A stretch of DNA of 64,000 nt from an uncultured Victivallales bacterium (GCA_944390795.1 CALXRI010000001.1:221979-285978), one strand, 5' to 3'. Shown: positions 2,711 through 47,744, counted from the stretch's first letter. Made by a program: numbers and translations. The notes: generated from the letters alone by a model not told the origin.

Positions 2711-3475
2711 TCATTCGTTTGCACTGAGAAGACGGTTTTTTGATGCGGTTGTTAGCATGATGTTTGCCAGATCCTGTCCGGACAGTGTGCCAATATGACC
2801 GTCCAGATAAGCAATGGATGCGCGGCCTTTGCTGAGCGAATACAATCCGAATCCGCTTGAGGTTACTGTATAAGGTTCTTCCTTCTGTCCGGGATGTCTG
2901 GGTGCAAAACATACACCGTTGGACTGACCGTCGACAATTGTGACGCCGGAGCCTCGCCAGGAGCCGGAATTGTTGTATCGTGTATCGCAGAGAAAGAGTT
3001 TTTCACTGGTATGTTTGATACTTGTCAGCTTATGACGGTAACTGTGATTTACCTCGTCGCCGAGATTGATGTTCATGCCGTAGGTTGTGTACCGGTAACC
3101 TGTGCTGCTGTTGGGCTTTTCCACCGTTGAATTTCCGGATCCGATAAGCGAATAGGAATATTGTACATCAATTTCCGGACAGTATAAAATTCGGTTGTTG
3201 CGGTTGTAGTTAAAGCGATAAAGAAGATGTGCCCAGTAGGTTTCTGTCGTATCGCCGAAAACTGTTTTGGGCAGTCTTGCGGGAATAATCAAATCCTGAT
3301 AATCGCCTGTATACTGATACGCAAAGGAATGCAGCTGTTTCAGCTGATTGATGCAGGTGACCGTTCTGGCTTTCCCTTTCACCTGATTTAATGCGGGGAG
3401 AAGCAGACTTGCCAGAATCGCGATGATCGCAATCACAACAAGGAGCTCCACCAATGTGAAACATTGTTTTTTCAT
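2711..3475 (-). CDS. Prepilin-type N-terminal motif protein, H-X9-DG/DUF1559-like pseudopilin paralog (P1)
   Basis: N-terminus [29 protein letters not shown] (class III signal-like, E at +5). C-terminal motif SIAYLDGH. Lies 25 nt upstream of the secreted GH42-like gene. Confidence 0.85.
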
Positions 3476-20905: not shown

Positions 20906-21400
20906 TCAGGCTCCGGGATGAAGCGCAGGGACACTCCAGTTTTTGCAGACGTCGATCCATTCCGCGCGTCCGGAGAATTTTTCCAGTTCTCCGGGTGTCA
21001 CTTCGATGGCGCTGTTCGCGCTGCCGCATGCGGGAAAGACCGTGCCGAAGCGTTTGAGCGACACGTCCAGATAGACGGAAACGCCCGGTTTGACGGCGAA
21101 CGGGCAGACGCCGCCCGGCGCGTGTCCGGTCCATGCTTCGGTGTCGGCGCCTCCGATCATCTTCGCCTTGCCGCCGAAACGCGCCTTGTATTTGACGTTG
21201 TCGATCCGCGCGTCTCCGGCGGCCACGATCAGAATGACGCGTTCCCCGAGCTGAAACGCAAGGGTCTTGGCGATCCGGCATTCTTCGCAGTGAAGCGCAT
21301 GCGCCGCAAGTTCGACCGTGGCACTCGATTCTGCAAATTCCATGACACGCCTGTCCGCTCCGAACTGTTTCAGATATTCCTTGACCTTTTCCACTGACAT
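20906..21400 (-). CDS. ybaK: YbaK/EbsC/ProX-type aminoacyl-tRNA deacylase
   Basis: 164 aa with CRIAKTLAF..GGVCPFA motifs. Confidence 0.75.
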   Translation of the reverse strand: MSVEKVKEYLKQFGADRRVMEFAESSATVELAAHALHCEECRIAKTLAFQLGERVILIVAAGDARIDNVKYKARFGGKAKMIGGADTEAWTGHAPGGVCPFAVKPGVSVYLDVSLKRFGTVFPACGSANSAIEVTPGELEKFSGRAEWIDVCKNWSVPALHPGA

Positions 21401-21427: not shown

Positions 21428-22534
21428 TCAATATCCCGCGACCTTCAGTGCGAGCAGAGCATAGGCGGTCACCAGTTCCGGCATCGATTCCATCCAGCGG
21501 CCGGATTTCCGGTTGATCCAGCTTCCGTCGGGGAGCTGCGTGCCGGAAAGCTGTTTCAGAAGATCCGCGCGCCAGTCGTGCTGTTTTCCGTCCGGCGTGC
21601 GGACCGTGTCCGATCCGAGCGCGGCATGCGCCTTGGCAAATGTCTGAAGATAGTAATAGAGCCCGTTCGGCCCGACGCCGGGATTTTCCGCGACGGTGTA
21701 GTGACGTGCCGCCCATTCCGCAGCCGCCTTCACACGCGGATCGTTCCTGCCGACCTTTGCATAGATCATGCTTTTGAGTCCGGCATAGGTCATGCTCCCG
21801 TAGGAGCGGAGCGTGCGCGGCAGTCCCGTCTTCATATCGTGCGGCGTATCCTCCTCCAGTTTGTAGATGAAGCCGCCATGATTCGGATCATCCGGATCGG
21901 AGACCACCCAGGTTTCGCGGTTCGTTTCCGGCAGATGCTGAACCTTTGTCAGGAACTGTTCGAGCCGCTTCCAGGCGAGATCGGCCTTCTGCGTATCGGC
22001 GGAGGACTTTGCCTCCGGTTCGCGGTCGAGATGATCCGTCAGATAGAGCGCCTCGGCAACCCACTGGGTGTTGGAGAGATCGACATGCGCGGCGCCGCGC
22101 GGATCGGGCCCGTAGCCGAAACCGCCGCAGTTCCGCGATTCCGGATCACTGTTCTGCAGATTGAGCAGCCATTTCCGGGCGTTGCGCATGACCGTTTCAT
22201 CCTCTTTGCAATTCAGGGTCGCCAGCGCGGCGAGTGCGATCGCGGTTGTGTAGGTCGGATATTCCCTTCTGCGGTTTGCCAGCCAGATCGAACCGTCCTT
22301 CCGCACGTGTTTCAGAAGATAGGCGCGTCCGCGCCCGATGGCTTCGGGATGCTTCCCGTGCAAGGCCATGCAGACCAGGCCGGTGATTGCCGGATGCCTT
22401 CCCCAGGAGCCGTCTTTTCCCTGCCGGGTCAGAAGATAGTCCTCTCCTTTTTTCACGACCGGATTCTCCGCACCGGAAAGGGTGACGGCAGCAATCCCAA
22501 GAATCAGCCAAAGCGGCCATTTTCTCATTTGCAA
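21428..22534 (-). CDS. Secreted prenyltransferase/squalene-oxidase-repeat (terpenoid-cyclase fold) protein
   Basis: Signal peptide MQMRKWPLWLILGIAAVTLSG. Repeated DGSW..T..ALLAL units (QGKDGSWG, RKDGSIW, LPDGSWI). Confidence 0.7.
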   Translation of the reverse strand: MQMRKWPLWLILGIAAVTLSGAENPVVKKGEDYLLTRQGKDGSWGRHPAITGLVCMALHGKHPEAIGRGRAYLLKHVRKDGSIWLANRRREYPTYTTAIALAALATLNCKEDETVMRNARKWLLNLQNSDPESRNCGGFGYGPDPRGAAHVDLSNTQWVAEALYLTDHLDREPEAKSSADTQKADLAWKRLEQFLTKVQHLPETNRETWVVSDPDDPNHGGFIYKLEEDTPHDMKTGLPRTLRSYGSMTYAGLKSMIYAKVGRNDPRVKAAAEWAARHYTVAENPGVGPNGLYYYLQTFAKAHAALGSDTVRTPDGKQHDWRADLLKQLSGTQLPDGSWINRKSGRWMESMPELVTAYALLALKVAGY

Positions 22535-22568
22535 CTCCTTCTTCTTTCTTTGTCTCTTTTCTTAAAAG

Positions 22569-22625
22569 ACGGAAAAATGCGAGAGCATTTTTCTCTGGGT
22601 CAAGGGCCCTTTGGCCCTTGCGCGA
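22569..22625 (-). repeat. Mosaic intergenic repeat, copy B (hairpin module only, inverted relative to copy A)
   Basis: ACGGAAAAATGC-GAGA-GCATTTTT hairpin, followed by the CAAGGGCC-CTTT-GGCCCTTG hairpin. Lies in the 98-nt gap between the permease and the prenyltransferase-like gene. Confidence 0.55.
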
Positions 22626-22632
22626 AATCCAT

Positions 22633-25326
22633 TTATTCTTCTTCCCTCCCGTCGAAAAATTTTCTCCGCATGGGCAGCAATGCGGGGATCAGCGTCCCCG
22701 CGAGGCAAACCCCGAGCACAGTCAGGCATCCACTTCCGACGCGTCCCCACGGGACGGCAAAATTCCACCCCATGCCGCCGAAAAAGCTCAGGCTGGAAGC
22801 CATCTGGGCGCTGCATATTCCCGAAAAAATCCCGAAAAGAAAACTGACGAGCGCCGCCGCGACGCCGACCATCAGAAACTCCGCCGTCACGAGCCGCACC
22901 GCACCGAATGCGGAGAGTCCGACCATGCGCATGGTCCGGAGCTCCCGGCGCCGCGCATGAACGGCGCAGAAGGCAGTCGAAGCCACTGCAAGCGCAGTTG
23001 CGCACAGAATCACGAGCGGCAGATTCAGCATCCCGCTGACCACCTGATCCGTTCTGCGCAGAATCGAATTTCGCAGGAAATCGCGCGAAACGAGTTTCAC
23101 GTATTCGTGCGAAATTCTGCTTCTGCCGCCTCCCGGCACACGGTAGAATTCTCCGGTATTCCGGGCGGCAAGCGCCGCAAGGGAGCGCCGCACTTCCTCC
23201 TCCCGTGTGCCGGGGGCAAGATTCATCCAGAGGAAGTTCACCCGTTTTAAGTCGAATTCGCGCGCAATGTTCTCATACGAACCGAACACCATTGCGGCGG
23301 TGCGCGGTGCGCGGCGGCGTGTTCCGGAGTATTTGGAAAACCAGTGCCAGCCCTGGAAGGCGATCACCCCGGCGACGGTAAAGGTCAGGCGCGTCCCGGG
23401 CGCCTCCGGGGGGATCACCTCGAAGGAATCTCCGGCACGCAGTCCCGTCACCAGGGAAAAGTGTTCGGGAATGACGCAGCAGCAGCCGCTTTTCAGGAGC
23501 GCGAGCGCATGTTCCCGGTCCGTCAGCCATTGAAAGGGAAGAAACGGATTGTTTCCTGAATAGGCGGCAGTGTCCAGTCCCATGAAGACGACATTGTCCT
23601 GCCGCACAACGTTCCGGAGACGCCGGCTTCCGGCCGGATCCCCGGCGAGTTTCCCCTGTTCAACTGCGACGGGATACGCTTCTTTCACTCCGGGAATGGT
23701 TCTGACGCGTGCGATGTCCGCATGGTTCAGTCCGCCCGGAAGAACCGCGGCAAAGAGATCCGGCATCCACGCGCCGGGCAGGAACGGCAGAAGAAGCGAC
23801 GCGCTCCAGATCACAATCATCATATAGAAGCCGAGCCCTGCGGAGAGTGCGCCGCACAGCAGGGCGTCACGCCGGAATCCTGCGGAAAGCTGCGAGCGGA
23901 GAAAGAGCGGAGAAAGCCGGAAAAGTCCTGCCGCCGGCAGGCAGAGGAAGCGTCCTGTCAGAAGGAGGATTCCCGGTGTCAGAAGCAGAAAAGCGACAGC
24001 CTGCACGGGACAGCCGGCAAATCCGTAAAGCGCAATCCGGAGCTTCTCCGGAATTCCCGGCAGAAAAACGATCAGGGGATTGACCGCCAGAAGCGGAAGA
24101 GCGCTCGAAAAGATTTTCCAGACACGTCCGGATACAATCCCAGGCTCCTGTTTTGCAAAGGCTTCCATCGGCGGAACCGATGCCGCGCGGAAGGCGGGAA
24201 TCAGCGCGCCGCCGACGGCCGAGGCGCAGGAAAACATTCCGCTTACGACAATGCTCCAGATTCCGGTCTGAAGCGGAAAAGAGAGAATTTTCAGAAGAAT
24301 CACTCCGGCTGCAAGGCCGCAGAGCCAGGAGGAAACGGCGAGAATGCTTCCTTCGCAGAGCAGAATCCCGAAAATCTGTCTTTTCGTGAACCCGTTCATG
24401 CGCAGCATCGCAAATGAACGGCGTTCCTCGTCCACTTCCATGTTCAGAATGGAAAAGACGAGGAAAAAAGCGACAAGAAAACTGACACTGCCTGCGGAGA
24501 AGACCTGCATCCGGGCATTGTCCGCACTCGCACTTTCCCGCAGGGCGTTTTCAATGTCTTTCCGCACAAGAAGCAGGTGCCGCGCATCGTTCCCGTTGCG
24601 TTGTTTCCATTCCCGGACGGAAACTCCGGGGGACAGGCGGACGGCGGCATAGGCGGTCCCGATGTTTCCGCCCGCACAGCGGCGGGCATCGTCAAGCGTC
24701 ACGTAAATTGTGCGCGAGGGCGGCGCGCGGAAGGAATCGCTTTCGGAAATCGTCGAGAAGTGTTTTCCGGCGGGATTTTCCGCAATGATCCCGACAAGGC
24801 GGAAACGGAAGAATCCCGCGGCGGAACGAACGACGATTTCGTTTCCCGTCTTCCATTTCCGCCGGGCGGCGGTGGAAGCGTCCGCGACCGCCTCGCCGGA
24901 GCGGCCCGAAAGCCAGCGGCCTGTTTTCACGGGAAGCGGCGGCGTTTTTGCGTCGGTTCCGGTCAGCACGGGTCCGCGGCGCGGCAGTCCGTACATCGGA
25001 ACCGGCGTTTCCGCACGTTTCCGTCCGGCGACATTGATATCCACATGCGCAAAGCGCGCCAGAGTTTTTACGGCGGGTTCGCCCCCCCAGCGTTTCAGGA
25101 GCGTTTCATCCAGATATGCGGATGCCGTCCGATGCGGAAAAACCAGGAGGTCCGCATCGCCCGTCATCAGCGCGGCGTCGCGCGCGGCGGAGGCTGTGAG
25201 CGTATCGTAAGAGGCGGCGGACCAGAGCGCGATGCAGACTGTCACCGTGATCGTCAGGAACACCGGCAGAGTGCGCAGCGGCGCGCGGCCGAGGCGCAGA
25301 AGGGCGAGATGCAGTGCCACTCTCAT
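22633..25326 (-). CDS. ABC transporter permease with two FtsX/MacB-type domains
   Basis: 897 aa with two blocks of 4 TM segments, each preceded by a large extracytoplasmic domain. ATGA overlap with the ATPase gene (25323-25326). Confidence 0.8.
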   Translation of the reverse strand: MRVALHLALLRLGRAPLRTLPVFLTITVTVCIALWSAASYDTLTASAARDAALMTGDADLLVFPHRTASAYLDETLLKRWGGEPAVKTLARFAHVDINVAGRKRAETPVPMYGLPRRGPVLTGTDAKTPPLPVKTGRWLSGRSGEAVADASTAARRKWKTGNEIVVRSAAGFFRFRLVGIIAENPAGKHFSTISESDSFRAPPSRTIYVTLDDARRCAGGNIGTAYAAVRLSPGVSVREWKQRNGNDARHLLLVRKDIENALRESASADNARMQVFSAGSVSFLVAFFLVFSILNMEVDEERRSFAMLRMNGFTKRQIFGILLCEGSILAVSSWLCGLAAGVILLKILSFPLQTGIWSIVVSGMFSCASAVGGALIPAFRAASVPPMEAFAKQEPGIVSGRVWKIFSSALPLLAVNPLIVFLPGIPEKLRIALYGFAGCPVQAVAFLLLTPGILLLTGRFLCLPAAGLFRLSPLFLRSQLSAGFRRDALLCGALSAGLGFYMMIVIWSASLLLPFLPGAWMPDLFAAVLPGGLNHADIARVRTIPGVKEAYPVAVEQGKLAGDPAGSRRLRNVVRQDNVVFMGLDTAAYSGNNPFLPFQWLTDREHALALLKSGCCCVIPEHFSLVTGLRAGDSFEVIPPEAPGTRLTFTVAGVIAFQGWHWFSKYSGTRRRAPRTAAMVFGSYENIAREFDLKRVNFLWMNLAPGTREEEVRRSLAALAARNTGEFYRVPGGGRSRISHEYVKLVSRDFLRNSILRRTDQVVSGMLNLPLVILCATALAVASTAFCAVHARRRELRTMRMVGLSAFGAVRLVTAEFLMVGVAAALVSFLFGIFSGICSAQMASSLSFFGGMGWNFAVPWGRVGSGCLTVLGVCLAGTLIPALLPMRRKFFDGREEE

Positions 25327-26057
25327 TTCCCTTGCTCCAGAATCCGGTGATATTCTGAGGAGAGCATGTTTATGGAAAGTCCTTTGGTCGTGGCGATTTC
25401 TCCGGCGAATGCGCCGTCCCGGAGTATGAGCACCCGGTTTGCCGCCAGAGCGACGGCGGGTTCATGCGTGACCATCACGATTGTGCGTCTTTCTTCATCG
25501 CAGAGTGTCCGGAGCAGTTTGCAGAACTCCTGTCCGGCGGCCGAGTCCAGGCTTCCCGTCGGTTCGTCGGCAAGGATCAGAGCGGGTTCCGGAAGCAGAG
25601 CGCGCCCGATCGCGGCGCGCTGCTGCTCGCCGCCGCTCAGGGAGAGCGGATAACTAGTCAGTTTGTCTGCAATTCCGAGTTTTTCAGCCAATGCGCGGCA
25701 ACGTGCCGTGTCGGGAGCGGCATTCCCTGCCAGAAGCGGCAGAAGCATATTTTCCTCTACGGTCAGATTCGAAATCAGGTTGAACGACTGGAAGATGAGC
25801 GCAATTTTTGTCCGGCGGAGGCGGCTCAGCGCGGCATCGCCCAATTCTGCGAGTTCCACGCCGTCCACCTGAACGTGTCCCGCGTCCAGCCCGATCAGTC
25901 CGGCGGCGGCATGAAGCAGTGTGCTCTTACCGGAACCGCTCGGTCCCATGACCGCCAGAAAATCGCCCCGTTCGACGCGGAGGCTGAGCGAGTCAAGCAC
26001 TCTCCGGGCGGAATAGATCTTTACGGCACTTTCAATGAGAAGCGGGCAGTCCGGCAT
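25323..26057 (-). CDS. ABC transporter ATP-binding protein (MacB/LolD-like)
   Basis: Walker A GPSGSGKSTLL, signature LSGGEQQR, Walker B ILADEPTGSLD. Confidence 0.95.
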   Translation of the reverse strand: MPDCPLLIESAVKIYSARRVLDSLSLRVERGDFLAVMGPSGSGKSTLLHAAAGLIGLDAGHVQVDGVELAELGDAALSRLRRTKIALIFQSFNLISNLTVEENMLLPLLAGNAAPDTARCRALAEKLGIADKLTSYPLSLSGGEQQRAAIGRALLPEPALILADEPTGSLDSAAGQEFCKLLRTLCDEERRTIVMVTHEPAVALAANRVLILRDGAFAGEIATTKGLSINMLSSEYHRILEQGK

Positions 26058-26068
26058 GGAAAATCCTC

Positions 26069-26908
26069 CTAGCGGTAAGAGACATGCGGGGATTCCGCGA
26101 CGGTGCCGAGTCCCGCGGTGATGTTGTTCGGGCGCGGTCCGAACGGATAATGCATGAAGTTTGCAAAATTGGCGACCGGTTCCCCGAAACGGTGTCCGTC
26201 ATCGACCGTTTTGACGAGGATGCGCATGTCGCCCGCGTGTCCGTCCATATAGACGATGTTCGAGGTCCCGCCCGCGTGCCGGAAGACGAAATTGCTCATG
26301 GTCGTGTATCCGGTTTTGGCTCCGGAAAGCATCGGGGAAATGTCCATCCATTCCGATTCGCCGACCGGATCGGCGGCCTGATAATCCAGCCAGAGCGCGC
26401 GTTTCGAAGGAGGATATTGTTCCATGAACGGCAGATCGACGCGTCGCCATGCGCCGACCGTCCCGGCGGAACTGGGCATTTCCGTGTCGGAGAGGCTCGA
26501 CGCGGAGCCGCCGATGCTGACCCGGATCATTTTTCCATCCTCCGTTTTCCAGGCGGGGAGGCGTTGCAGCATGGCAGTGGCGGCGTCGGAGGGGCAGCGC
26601 GCGATTTTTTCCGGGATCGCATCACGCCCGAAATAGCGCACGAATCCCGCCTTCTTTTCAAGATAATGCCGCACATCCGGATAGTATCCCGCGTAATCGC
26701 CGAGATATCCCGAAGTTGCGAAAGAATACTGTTTCAGGAGATTCGTGCAGGCGGTCTTTCCCGCCCGTGCGCGCGCCGCCCCGAGCGCGGGAAAAAGAAG
26801 TCCGGCCAGAATCGCGAGAATTGCGGCGACGACAAGGAGCTCCAGAAGAGTGAACTCCTTCCGCGGCATCCGCCTTGTTTCGTTTCCGCCGGCATTCCGT
26901 TTCATCAT
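26069..26908 (-). CDS. Prepilin-type N-terminal motif protein, H-X9-DG-like pseudopilin paralog (P2)
   Basis: RKE-FTLLELLVVAAILAILAGLLFPAL and FRHAGGTSNIVYMDGH. Start set at ATG 26908 (RBS AAGGAAAG) instead of the track start at 27073. Its stop codon lies inside the RBS of the ABC ATPase. Confidence 0.8.
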   Translation of the reverse strand: MMKRNAGGNETRRMPRKEFTLLELLVVAAILAILAGLLFPALGAARARAGKTACTNLLKQYSFATSGYLGDYAGYYPDVRHYLEKKAGFVRYFGRDAIPEKIARCPSDAATAMLQRLPAWKTEDGKMIRVSIGGSASSLSDTEMPSSAGTVGAWRRVDLPFMEQYPPSKRALWLDYQAADPVGESEWMDISPMLSGAKTGYTTMSNFVFRHAGGTSNIVYMDGHAGDMRILVKTVDDGHRFGEPVANFANFMHYPFGPRPNNITAGLGTVAESPHVSYR

Positions 26909-28291: not shown

Positions 28292-28945
28292 ATGAAGAAG
28301 TCATATTTTACCTTGATAGAGCTCCTCGTAGTGATTGCCATCATTGCAATTCTTGCCGCGATGCTTTTGCCGGCCCTGTCGAAAGCGCGCAATGTGGCGC
28401 AGCGGATTGCCTGCGTCAACAATCTGAAACAGGTGGGGACCGTGTTTCTGTTCTATACCAATGACTGCAACGACTGGATGCCGCCGCGGTGGTATGCCGG
28501 AGACGGTCTGGCATGGTATAAACGGTTCTGCAATACCGGTTATATCACATTCAAAAAGGATTACAAATGGCTTTACTGCCACTCTTACGTCACCCCGGAA
28601 CAACAGGCTGAAGTGGAGCAATTCCCGACTGCGGCGAATGGCTCCATGTACATTTACGGCATGAAGTATCTGTCGGATGACTTCCGGAAAATGTCTGATG
28701 TTCTGCAGGGCAGAAATGCATCTTTCCGCAAACCGGGACGGTGGGACTGGTTTTCGGATACGAAGGAAAAAGACCGGCCCCGTCAGTCTTACTGGTATTA
28801 TTCCACTCAAACGTCAGACGAGGGACCCAGGATTCACCTGCGTCACGGGAGAACAGTGAATCAGTGGTTTCTGGACGGACATCTGGAATCCCGGACACTG
28901 CAGAGTGTTTTATCGGCATATCCCGATGCGAAATACGCATTCTGA
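28292..28945 (+). CDS. Prepilin-type N-terminal motif protein, H-X9-DG pseudopilin paralog (P3)
   Basis: [29 protein letters not shown] and [14 protein letters not shown] (exact H-X9-DG spacing). RBS AAGGAG. Confidence 0.85.
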
Positions 28946-43727: not shown

Positions 43728-44474
43728 TTATTTTCTTGTCCGGTCGTGATCCCGGAACCAGTTCCGCATGTACCAGGCGGTCCAGTTGCCGAACTGCGGG
43801 TTTAAGATGGTCCGGACCGCGCCGTCCTGGTAAAGGACGTTGCTTTTGTTCTTGTGGCTCGGCGCGATATAGGTTCCGAGGCTGACAAATTCATCCGCCG
43901 CCATAATCCTCACCGGATAGCGCAGACGGTAGGAACGTTCCTTGTTCGCAACGTCGTTGGACAGAAGAAAGGAATCCGTCAGATCCTCCAGCTCAAACAT
44001 GTTGTAGCGGTAGGAGGTGCGCAGGCGCGGAATGCAGTATTGATCCGCAAAACGCATGTCGTAGAACATGTCTGATCCGGAATTGACGCCCGGTCTGCGC
44101 GCCGGGCACTGAAACACCTTCGCGCTTTTCAGATATTTCAATTGATACAGCGCCAGATTCATGGAATACGGGGTGCTGGCCTGACGGAAGAAATCGCTTT
44201 CCAGCATGACCCGCTCGACGCTGCCTTTCTCCGTCCGGTCCGACATGGAGGGAAACCATTCCTTGTTGTCGCCGGTATACGAGATCAGCGACACCCCCTG
44301 CTGGCGGAGATTCGAAAGGCAGTTGATGTTCTGCACTTTCCTTTTCGCATTGTTCAGGGCGGGAAGAAGCAGCGAAGCGAGAATTGCAATAATTGAAATT
44401 ACGACCAGAAGTTCTATCAATGTAAAAGAATTCCTCCGGCGGAAAGAAACATTCGAAGCCTTGCACGATTTCAT
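43728..44474 (-). CDS. Prepilin-type N-terminal motif protein, H-X9-DG pseudopilin paralog (P4)
   Basis: [28 protein letters not shown] and SH-KNKSNVLYQ-DG. The ATG is 1 nt after the stop of the upstream regulator. Confidence 0.85.
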   Translation of the reverse strand: MKSCKASNVSFRRRNSFTLIELLVVISIIAILASLLLPALNNAKRKVQNINCLSNLRQQGVSLISYTGDNKEWFPSMSDRTEKGSVERVMLESDFFRQASTPYSMNLALYQLKYLKSAKVFQCPARRPGVNSGSDMFYDMRFADQYCIPRLRTSYRYNMFELEDLTDSFLLSNDVANKERSYRLRYPVRIMAADEFVSLGTYIAPSHKNKSNVLYQDGAVRTILNPQFGNWTAWYMRNWFRDHDRTRK

Positions 44475-46962: not shown

Positions 46963-47744
46963 AAAAATGGAACGGAATCCGTTTTACACTGATTGAGCTT
47001 CTCATCGTGATTGCCATCATTGCCATTCTGGTCTCCATTCTTCTGCCTGCTCTGAGCAAGGCCCGCAACATGGCATACGAAGTCTCATGCGTTTCCAATC
47101 TGAGGCAGATCGGGTTCGGAGCCGCCGGCTATTCGCACGACTATCGGGAATACATTCTTCCCGCCGGCGTTCCATGCGATACAAGTTTTGATTACGGGCG
47201 TTCCGGAAAATGGTACGGTCTGCTGTCCGGCTACGGGGGCATGACAGGCGGTTACGGGCCGGTCTACCGGAAAAGCACGGATGCCCCGACATTCACATGC
47301 AAAAGGGAAGCTGTCCCTCTTGGAGCGGCAACGGACGGGAAATTCAATCAGACTCATTATACCGTCAACAACTGGCTCTGCGGATATTATGACGCCACCT
47401 CGGAATACCTGAAAAAGTTCAGGAAGCTGAAAGCTGTCTTTGCTCCGTCGGCGGCGGTTCTGGTTTTCGATACGAATGATATCAGTTCCCTTGCGGCGTC
47501 TTCCTTTACGCAGCTTAGCTGGCGCCATTCCGCCGGAGGGGATTCGCGCAAGCCTGGAACAGCTGCGGAACTCTTCGGAACGAGGCCGGGGCTCGGGAAA
47601 TGCAATATGCTTCATGTCGACGGCCATGCGCTCGGAAGATATTACCGTGATTTTTCCACTGATTTTTCCCAGGTCAGAAATTTTACGGGCTCCATAGGAA
47701 CCTCATGGAGCAACCGGCCTTTCTTCCGGGGATTTGAGATTTGA
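46959..47744 (+). CDS. Prepilin-type N-terminal motif protein, H-X9-DG-like pseudopilin paralog (P5)
   Basis: [32 protein letters not shown] and [13 protein letters not shown] overlap with the lacI-type gene (46959-46962). Confidence 0.85.

Follow-up and report, generated by a model that had tools for sequence, protein, structure and literature searches.

The described systems that come closest to the one reported here belong to the Type VII (FtsX-type) superfamily of ATP-binding cassette (ABC) transporters, namely LolCDE-LolA, YbbAP-TesA and MacAB-TolC. The locus that we compare with them lies on the minus strand of a 64,000-nucleotide stretch of DNA (the window) from an uncultured Victivallales bacterium, taken from a 3.44-Mb assembly of 66 contigs. 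Its genes encode, in order, a pilin-like protein (P2), an ABC ATPase, an 897-aa double-FtsX permease, a secreted protein with an alpha/alpha toroid fold (the toroid) and YbaK. Comparison across genomes identifies P2, the MacB/LolD-type ATPase and the double-FtsX permease, together with, less strictly, a toroid that lacks the cyclase acid, as a conserved accessory cell-envelope module of bacteria of the Planctomycetes-Verrucomicrobia-Chlamydiae (PVC) group, present in Lentisphaeria and some Phycisphaerae.

As in LolCDE-LolA, a MacB/FtsX-fold permease with large periplasmic domains is combined with a LolD-type ATPase and there is no membrane-fusion adaptor; LolC, LolE and LolF are also among the best matches of the permease profile in the PDB. 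The only hold that clients of LolCDE have on the inner membrane is a hydrophobic anchor at the N-terminus, and they pass from there to a soluble periplasmic acceptor; the same is proposed below for P2. In contrast to LolCDE, both permease halves are here fused in one chain with 10 transmembrane (TM) segments, and the equivalog cut-offs are not reached (26.3 bits against 362.45 for the lolCE model, 171 bits against 307.75 for LolD). The cluster has no LolA-like gene, and the anchor of the proposed client is a peptide helix instead of acyl chains. Unlike an essential housekeeping system, the window-type module is accessory, its permease being found in 13 of 61 relatives and in 42 of 401 genomes of the phylum.

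YbbAP-TesA of E. coli is an adaptor-less Type VII ABC system whose proposed role is to remove hydrophobic compounds from the inner membrane, and it resembles the locus in its fused double-FtsX permease of ~10 TM segments, its separate ATPase, the lack of an adaptor or duct and the adjoining partner gene (PMC12646458). Its partner, however, is neither pilin-like nor a toroid but TesA, an SGNH hydrolase. The PDB matches of the permease included no YbbP chain, whether a single sequence or an 8-sequence profile (E <= 1) was used, the presence of YbbP in that copy of the PDB being unchecked, and the likeness to YbbAP is one of architecture and not of close sequence. MacAB-TolC shares the clade of the nucleotide-binding domain (NBD) and the permease fold, MacB chains being profile matches in the PDB at ~1e-9, but it requires an HlyD-type adaptor and an outer-membrane duct, neither of which is encoded in the module, and MacB forms a homodimer of chains that each include the NBD.

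The partners of the pump have relatives of other kinds. P2 resembles the GspG pseudopilin of the type II secretion system (T2SS) in its class III-type N-terminus (F1, E5 and P22), long alpha-1 helix and alpha/beta head, and in the T2SS too an ATP-driven machine, the GspE/F/L/M platform, draws the helix of a subunit out of the inner membrane. However, P2 does not have Gly at position -1, and the machine beside it is an ABC transporter instead of a GspE/PilB ATPase with a GspF platform. A further relative is the N_methyl + SBP_bac_10 (DUF1559) or H-X9-DG pilin-like paralog family of Planctomycetes (PMC8567305), whose members share with P2 a prepilin-type N-terminus and a C-terminal H-X9-DG-type motif, number ~100 per genome and have no known function. 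Whereas these paralogs evolve fast, P2 is a single-copy ortholog group that is associated with one machine and retained in more than one phylum. The toroid has the alpha/alpha toroid fold and QW-type repeats of squalene-hopene cyclase (SHC) and other class II terpene cyclases, but is secreted, has a single domain and carries DLSNTQ in place of DxDDTA throughout its family.

By fold and motifs the system is a member of the Type VII superfamily. It is neither LolCDE nor MacAB-TolC, and its PDB matches give no sign of a close sequence relation to YbbAP; we would class it as a machine of known type that has a new kind of partner. The original prediction, which was made from the window sequence, had regarded a pilin-like protein as cargo or periplasmic partner of such a pump as an undescribed arrangement, and this view is supported, as full-text literature searches found no pilin-like partner or client of a Type VII (FtsX-type) ABC system. 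What they returned was background on the paralog family, reviews of YbbAP-TesA and MacB, and incidental co-mentions.

Conservation and co-occurrence of the module

The adjacency of P2 to the ABC pair, which had been noticed in the window, is not unique to it. P2 orthologs adjoin an ABC pair in 24 of 25 loci with enough flanking sequence (12/13 from genomes and 12/12 from metagenomes, some loci being common to the two scans because they come from the same organisms). The genome loci derive from 185,579 species genomes scanned with a P2 alignment, which yielded 15 true orthologs, 13 of them with enough flank and 12 beside an ABC pair; since both scans were seeded by P2 motifs, these figures count P2 genes that have an ABC pair beside them and not the converse. 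An initial homolog search had given 22 proteins, and the orthologs were gathered by locus scans. The metagenome scan was seeded with a 6-sequence P2 alignment, a 19-sequence alignment being too diverse to serve as a seed.

Five or more different gene orders, from two phyla, keep the genes together. Within the genus, at permease identities of 67-83%, P2, ATPase, permease and toroid are adjacent with or without YbaK, and the module arrangement is also kept in other genera and families at permease identities of 30-50%. In G008 and G020 P2 is followed by the ATPase and the permease, which has 1104 aa in G008, and in G041 and G059 an extra bitopic protein of 198-216 aa stands between P2 and the ATPase, permease and toroid. 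A Tepidisphaeraceae contig labelled Phycisphaerae (L039) has the order toroid-P2-ATPase-permease, and unassigned metagenome contigs have ATPase-permease-P2 (L032), toroid-ATPase-permease-P2 (L073) and a toroid gene directly after P2 (L071). The toroid is absent from four loci in which P2 and the ABC pair are adjacent (L033, L035, L038 and L040).

Co-occurrence was examined in metagenome-assembled genomes (MAGs) of relatives and in genomes sampled across the phylum. Among the 61 relatives the permease is present in 13 and P2 in 12, all of them within those 13 (Fisher p = 7e-12). Across 401 genomes of the phylum, P2 is found in 15 and the permease in 42; every one of the 15 P2 genomes has the permease, and P2 occurs in none of the 359 genomes that lack it (Fisher p = 1.5e-16). 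These tests take genomes as independent, which is mitigated by the patchy presence of P2 and permease within genera (g1, g7, g8, g12 and g17). G003, from the genus of the window itself, is without P2, permease and toroid. Such patchiness within genera indicates repeated joint gain or loss and not descent as one inherited block. Moreover, P2 and the permease are unlinked in 5 of the 15 genomes (G011, G191, G200, G306 and G389), where they lie on different contigs or megabases apart; G200 is a complete genome of 5.7 Mb. The toroid was found in 13/13 of the permease genomes and in 5/48 of the other relatives.

In an evolutionary sense P2, the ATPase and the permease therefore form one functional unit, and it is highly probable that P2 is functionally coupled to the pump. 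The toroid is a looser, though frequent, third partner of this unit. It adjoins the permease without a pilin gene in G011 and in G387, a genome of another class.

The additional protein of G041 and G059, which belong to one family (L024 6086-6682; L023 1323-1973), has a charged cytoplasmic N-terminus, one TM segment and ~110 aa that form a periplasmic domain. Pfam gives no match to it, and its topology recalls that of GspM/PilO-type proteins.

Gene layout in the window

Gene calls uphold the order, coordinates and strand that had been predicted for the locus, and domain scans match the labels given to its genes; the position of the P2 stop codon within the Shine-Dalgarno sequence of the ATPase gene, the ATGA overlap and the 98-nt gap were all verified on the sequence. 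The P2 gene occupies 26069-26908 on the minus strand and encodes 279 aa, as defined by sequence, domain scans and ortholog alignments. Its reading frame is open up to 27073, but the start (MMKRN...) was set at 26908 because it is conserved and agrees with a 279-aa cluster representative of 92% identity. The junction with the ATPase gene (TAGGAGGATTTTCCATG, 26055-26071, minus strand) reads ...CGC TAG GAGG ATTTTCC ATG. The TAG of P2 (26071-26069) thus lies inside the AGGAGG (26070-26065), which ends 7 nt before the ATG at 26057, with 11 nt separating the stop codon from the start codon. A spacing of 9-17 nt recurs in the orthologous loci L029, L030, L031, L035, L038 and L040. As far as can be read from the sequence, the junction is compatible with translational coupling of P2 and ATPase.

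The ATPase gene (25323-26057, minus strand) and the permease gene (22633-25326, minus strand) share ATGA at 25326-25323. A gap of 98 nt separates the permease gene from that of the toroid (21428-22534, minus strand) and contains a terminator-like hairpin at 22593-22572 on the minus strand, with a 9-bp stem followed by a T-rich tail, which may attenuate read-through into the toroid gene. It has the look of an ordinary intrinsic terminator and not of the edge of a mobile element.

P2 and the other pilin-like proteins

Among its ~3100 genes the genome has ~102 for pilin-like paralogs that are 150 aa or longer and begin with an FTLIELLVV-type N-terminus, and P2 is a separate ortholog group among them as judged from alignments and profile scores. 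Its paralogs in the genome align to it over the first 60-100 aa only, that is over the N-terminal helix, at no more than 70 bits, whereas full-length alignments are obtained with proteins of other genera, other families and even Planctomycetota. The P2 profile separates the two sets cleanly, no ortholog scoring below 274 bits and no paralog above 142 bits.

P2 has a leader of 18 aa followed by FTLLELLVV (with F1, E5 and P22), a long N-terminal helix in which this motif continues as FTLLELLVV...LFPAL, and an alpha/beta head. The TIGR02532 model of prepilin N-termini is matched at 17.2 bits (cut-off 16.3), and the N-terminus is of GspG type, the GspG model itself giving 21.8 bits against a cut-off of 88.85. 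The P2 profile matches pilin N-termini in the PDB at 3e-10 to 1e-4, and the head domain has no sequence match there by profile search. In the AlphaFold2 model (pLDDT 74.5, pTM 0.72) a helix of 50 residues (21-71) precedes a globular alpha/beta head; Foldseek with the whole model returned weak, non-significant matches to pilins and nothing else that was significant. P22 (mature numbering), Cys54, Cys105 and the H...DGH motif are invariant in the orthologs, and the two cysteines are candidates for a possible disulfide. P2 carries an H-X10-DG motif (FRHAGGTSNIVYMDGH), and the ortholog alignment has H-X10-DG in the genus of the window and H-X9-DG in the L024 ortholog. Neither PF07596 nor the H-X9-DG models of Pfam and NCBIfam match P2 at E <= 0.01. 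Distant homologs carry PF07596 and are called H-X9-DG proteins in their source records.

The residue before F1 is Glu in P2, so that the canonical Gly for cleavage by prepilin peptidase is absent. In other P2 orthologs of Lentisphaeria this position holds S, N, P, F, I, K or R, and Gly is found only in two Planctomycete orthologs. The same position has Gly in 7 of the 102 genome paralogs and in the rest varies widely (N, R, S, F, Y, K, C and others). Either the prepilin peptidases of Lentisphaeria are of relaxed specificity or these pilin-like proteins are not cleaved before F1. The original prediction had also suggested that these pseudopilins might be extracted or assembled independently of a classical T2SS or type IV pilus platform, a suggestion that finds no support here. 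Three genes for Peptidase_A24 (prepilin-peptidase-like) proteins and several for platform proteins of the GspF/PilC/TadBC (T2SSF) type are present in the genome.

A link between pilin-like paralogs of the H-X9-DG type and MacB-type pumps, which the original prediction had proposed to check, holds for one ortholog group, P2, and not for the paralogs generally. There are only three loci for FtsX-type permeases in the genome and one of them has an adjoining pilin gene; the remaining ~100 paralogs do not stand beside FtsX genes in this genome, and a generic link between pilin paralogs and ABC pumps was therefore rejected. On contig C11 (G000:C11:96263-103586) an HlyD adaptor, an ATPase and an FtsX pump are convergent to a cassette made up of a pilin paralog and a 1042-aa secreted protein, the pilin gene lying ~3.3 kb from the pump. 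This locus shows that a pilin gene near an FtsX pump can occur without any link.

Several other observations concern P2 genes. The ortholog in G059 (L023 / L041, G059:C34, 400-1272) has a stop after MRKSQF and no in-frame hydrophobic helix, and is either a pseudogene or an error of MAG assembly. The unlinked P2 of G011 (L044, G011:C40, 2177-8848) stands beside a GDSL/SGNH hydrolase gene, a MarR-like gene and two tandem secretin genes (9e-14 and 9e-5). In G031 (L045, G031:C115, 6346-8758) P2 starts 5 nt after a gene for a processive chitin-synthase-like GT2 protein, and in G008 (L022, G008:C19, 1931-5325) genes for GT2 and PMT_2 (GT-C) glycosyltransferases lie just upstream of P2. The glycosyltransferase genes, which are inconsistent across loci, hint at a connection with pilin glycosylation or the synthesis of glycans. 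No further conserved partner was seen around the unlinked P2 genes and the stand-alone toroid genes whose surroundings were examined. In the window, pilin-like genes besides P2 are found at 28292-28945 and 46983-47744 on the plus strand and at 2711-3460 and 43728-44426 on the minus strand.

The ABC ATPase and the permease

Assignment of the pair to the MacB/FtsX type (Type VII), as originally proposed, proved right and is supported by the NBD motifs, the ABC_tran match, the two FtsX modules and the profile matches in the PDB. The ATPase (244 aa) belongs to the MacB/LolD/FtsE clade by its motifs and its ABC_tran match of 3.6e-30; it has the Walker A motif GPSGSGKST, the signature LSGGEQQR, the Walker B motif LILADEPTGSLD and the H-loop VTHEP. 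Its best NCBIfam matches are DarD, LolD, FtsE and MacB, all below their equivalog cut-offs. The fused permease matches the FtsX domain in two stretches (3.7e-19). From hydropathy it has ~10 TM segments in a 4+2+4 arrangement and two periplasmic domains of ~240 aa each, with TM1 at residues 17-35, periplasmic domain 1 at ~36-274, TM2-4 at 275-376, the linker TM segments at 405-462, TM7 at 488-518, periplasmic domain 2 at ~519-770 and TM8-10 at 771-884.

A search of the PDB with the single permease sequence gave no match. A profile of eight orthologs matches Spr0695 (5xu1), LolC, MacB, YtrF, LolF and LolE, and the N-terminal half of the permease aligns as a whole to Spr0695 and MacB. The module contains no HlyD-type adaptor or outer-membrane factor, and the orthologous loci have no conserved extra gene except the bitopic protein of one lineage; a separate canonical pump with HlyD and FtsX is the one encoded on contig C11 of the same genome. 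The lack of an adaptor in the module led us to reject a MacAB-type efflux pump, and in architecture the pump groups with the extractors among Type VII systems (LolCDE-LolA, YbbAP-TesA and HrtBA) and not with MacAB-TolC.

The second periplasmic domain contains a near-invariant motif, GWHWFSK-SG-RR...RTAAM (permease residues ~650-680), which is conserved from Lentisphaeria to a 27%-identical paralog in G031 and has no counterpart in solved structures. A 943-aa permease homolog with an ATPase but no neighbouring pilin gene occurs in genus g85 (G114:C1:738130-740946 and ~18 other genomes; L077) and scores ~630 bits with the profile. Many genomes of this genus are complete at 2-3 Mb, and such an organism may be tractable for studying the pump itself.

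The toroid protein

The toroid (368 aa) matches SQHop_cyclase_C at 6e-11 and is made of prenyltransferase/squalene-oxidase repeats. Its N-terminus, read from the sequence, is a Sec-type signal peptide (MQMRKWPLWLILGIAAVTLSGA, with EN following the cleavage point). The AlphaFold2 model (pLDDT 91.5) is a single alpha/alpha toroid forming one domain of ~345 aa. Its top Foldseek matches are 8pak, 1sqc, 8paj and MstE (probability 1.00, TM-score ~0.57), 8pak and 8paj being single-domain SHC-like proteins, and there are further matches to AprG, the farnesyltransferase beta subunit and MmpH.

In a hidden Markov model alignment the DLSNTQ of the toroid falls on D374-V-D376-D377-T-A of SHC, and D151 and N154 of the toroid are invariant in 35 sequences. 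With DLSNTQ in place of DxDDTA the general acid of the cyclases is absent, and for this reason an active cyclase was rejected. The protein also scores far below the cut-offs of the cyclase models. Its family has at least 7,934 members, extends throughout the PVC group with ~50% identity across classes and is mostly stand-alone; judged by its sequences it is a conserved family of secreted pseudo-cyclases. The residues that are invariant in the family comprise DLSNTQW and many Tyr, as well as Asp, Glu, Gln and Arg.

Possible function of the module

Although the coupling of P2 to the pump is well founded, it is less certain that P2 is a client to be extracted rather than a fixed partner. The interpretation that we prefer is of a conserved module whose pump extracts P2 from the inner membrane and hands it on, and as a whole this is plausible rather than probable. 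After removal of the leader, the hydrophobic N-terminal helix would be all that holds mature P2 in the inner membrane, and the head would project into the periplasm, a topology like that of the clients which LolCDE extracts by their lipid anchors. When ATP drives the TM cleft of the permease to close and its periplasmic domains to move, these changes could act on the helix and pull P2 out of the membrane. Extracted P2 might then be received in the periplasm by the toroid or enter an assembly resembling a pseudopilus. Extraction is preferred because adaptor-less Type VII systems act on hydrophobic moieties that are lodged in the membrane, and a processed pilin has that topology. A bolder form of the same proposal, which we consider rather unlikely, is that the Type VII ABC system is a second motor for proteins with class III signals, extracting the pilin helix and either releasing it to a toroid chaperone or pushing it into a short pseudopilus, without GspE/PilB or GspF.

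A number of points weigh against extraction of P2. Homologous permeases occur without P2 and without a neighbouring pilin gene in G045 and in 26 genomes of other classes, indicating that the pump needs no pilin to function, and at one locus (L037) no ABC pair was found within 8 kb of P2. Processing of P2 by prepilin peptidase is itself putative, because the residue before F1 is not Gly in Lentisphaeria, and physical contact between P2 and the permease is a prediction from gene association. The spacing of the stop codon within the Shine-Dalgarno sequence is at least as typical of stoichiometric subunits of a complex as of cargo. To our knowledge the partners of Type VII systems (MacA, EnvC, TesA and LolA) bind to periplasmic domains and are not proteins extracted by a helix. 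The cavity of a toroid of this size, as in prenyltransferases and cyclases, holds isoprenoids or short peptides and not a helix of 20 residues, and most members of the toroid family stand apart from any such module.

P2 might instead be a fixed, membrane-anchored periplasmic partner in the place of MacA, EnvC or TesA. The cargo would then be a lipid or another small hydrophobic compound, perhaps isoprenoid or polyprenyl in nature, which the pump would extract from the inner membrane and pass to the toroid as a binding protein. P2 has the topology of MacA, with an N-terminal TM helix and a periplasmic domain, and the coupling of its stop codon to the ATPase gene suggests that the two are co-produced in stoichiometric amounts. 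An isoprenoid-binding enzyme fold without the catalytic acid suits a binder, in G011 and G387 the toroid gene adjoins that of the permease and no pilin gene is beside them, and there is a precedent in the proposed extraction of lipid to a periplasmic partner by YbbAP-TesA (PMC12646458). However, no gene for isoprenoid biosynthesis was found in or near any locus examined. The conserved E5 and P22 are features of pilin assembly and would be needless in a mere anchor, yet they are common to the whole paralog family. The invariant residues of the toroid (Tyr, Asp, Glu, Gln and Arg) would suit a polar or carbohydrate ligand as well as an isoprenoid. We regard a fixed partner, the main alternative, as a doubtful possibility overall, but the present data do not separate it from P2 as client.

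It is improbable that the genes are simply inherited together as an island or regulon with separate functions, P2 being an ordinary T2SS-type pseudopilin that secretes or displays the toroid and the ABC pair an independent detoxification or resistance pump. The two secretin genes and the GDSL hydrolase gene beside the unlinked P2 of G011 and the toroid gene directly after P2 in L071 would fit such an arrangement, and the peptidases and platform proteins of the genome could handle P2. Against this, P2 tracks the permease and not the toroid, as is seen in the four loci without a toroid gene, and the toroid is found in five genomes that have neither P2 nor permease. Co-occurrence in 15 of 15 genomes also persists where the genes are unlinked, which an island alone does not explain. 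Chance adjacency in a genome crowded with pilin genes, where ~102 paralogs in 3.4 Mb give a ~3% likelihood that a given upstream neighbour is a pilin, has a negligible probability and is refuted by the conservation data, since adjacency is kept in 24/25 loci across families, phyla and permuted gene orders and the co-occurrence has p = 1e-11 to 1e-16.

PVC genomes carry tens to hundreds of pilin-like genes of the H-X9-DG/DUF1559 type, with no known function. P2 is the first such member found here to be single-copy, conserved across families and phyla and locked to a machine of understood mechanics. Its pairing with the pump gives an experimental handle on the pilin-like family and makes it testable whether P2 is bound, extracted or needed. 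If the pairing is true, a new class of partner, a pilin-like protein that may or may not be accompanied by a dead-cyclase toroid, joins MacA, LolA, EnvC and TesA, and if P2 is indeed the cargo, proteins of pilin type could be handled by a machine from beyond the type IV filament superfamily.

Neighbouring genes

In the window the module is flanked by genes for GntR, YbaK and a Na+/H+ exchanger. The ybaK gene (20906-21400, minus strand) encodes a YbaK/EbsC-type aminoacyl-tRNA editing protein (tRNA_edit/YbaK, 6e-22). It had been considered as a part of the module and was rejected, since its adjacency is kept only within the genus (L028, L029 and L061, with truncated copies in L031 and L062, and absent from the G001 layout) and is absent outside it; judging from these contexts, YbaK is probably not part of the module. 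A near-identical layout is present on public contigs labelled uncultured Lentisphaeria or Victivallales, at least one of which comes from a human-gut metagenome.

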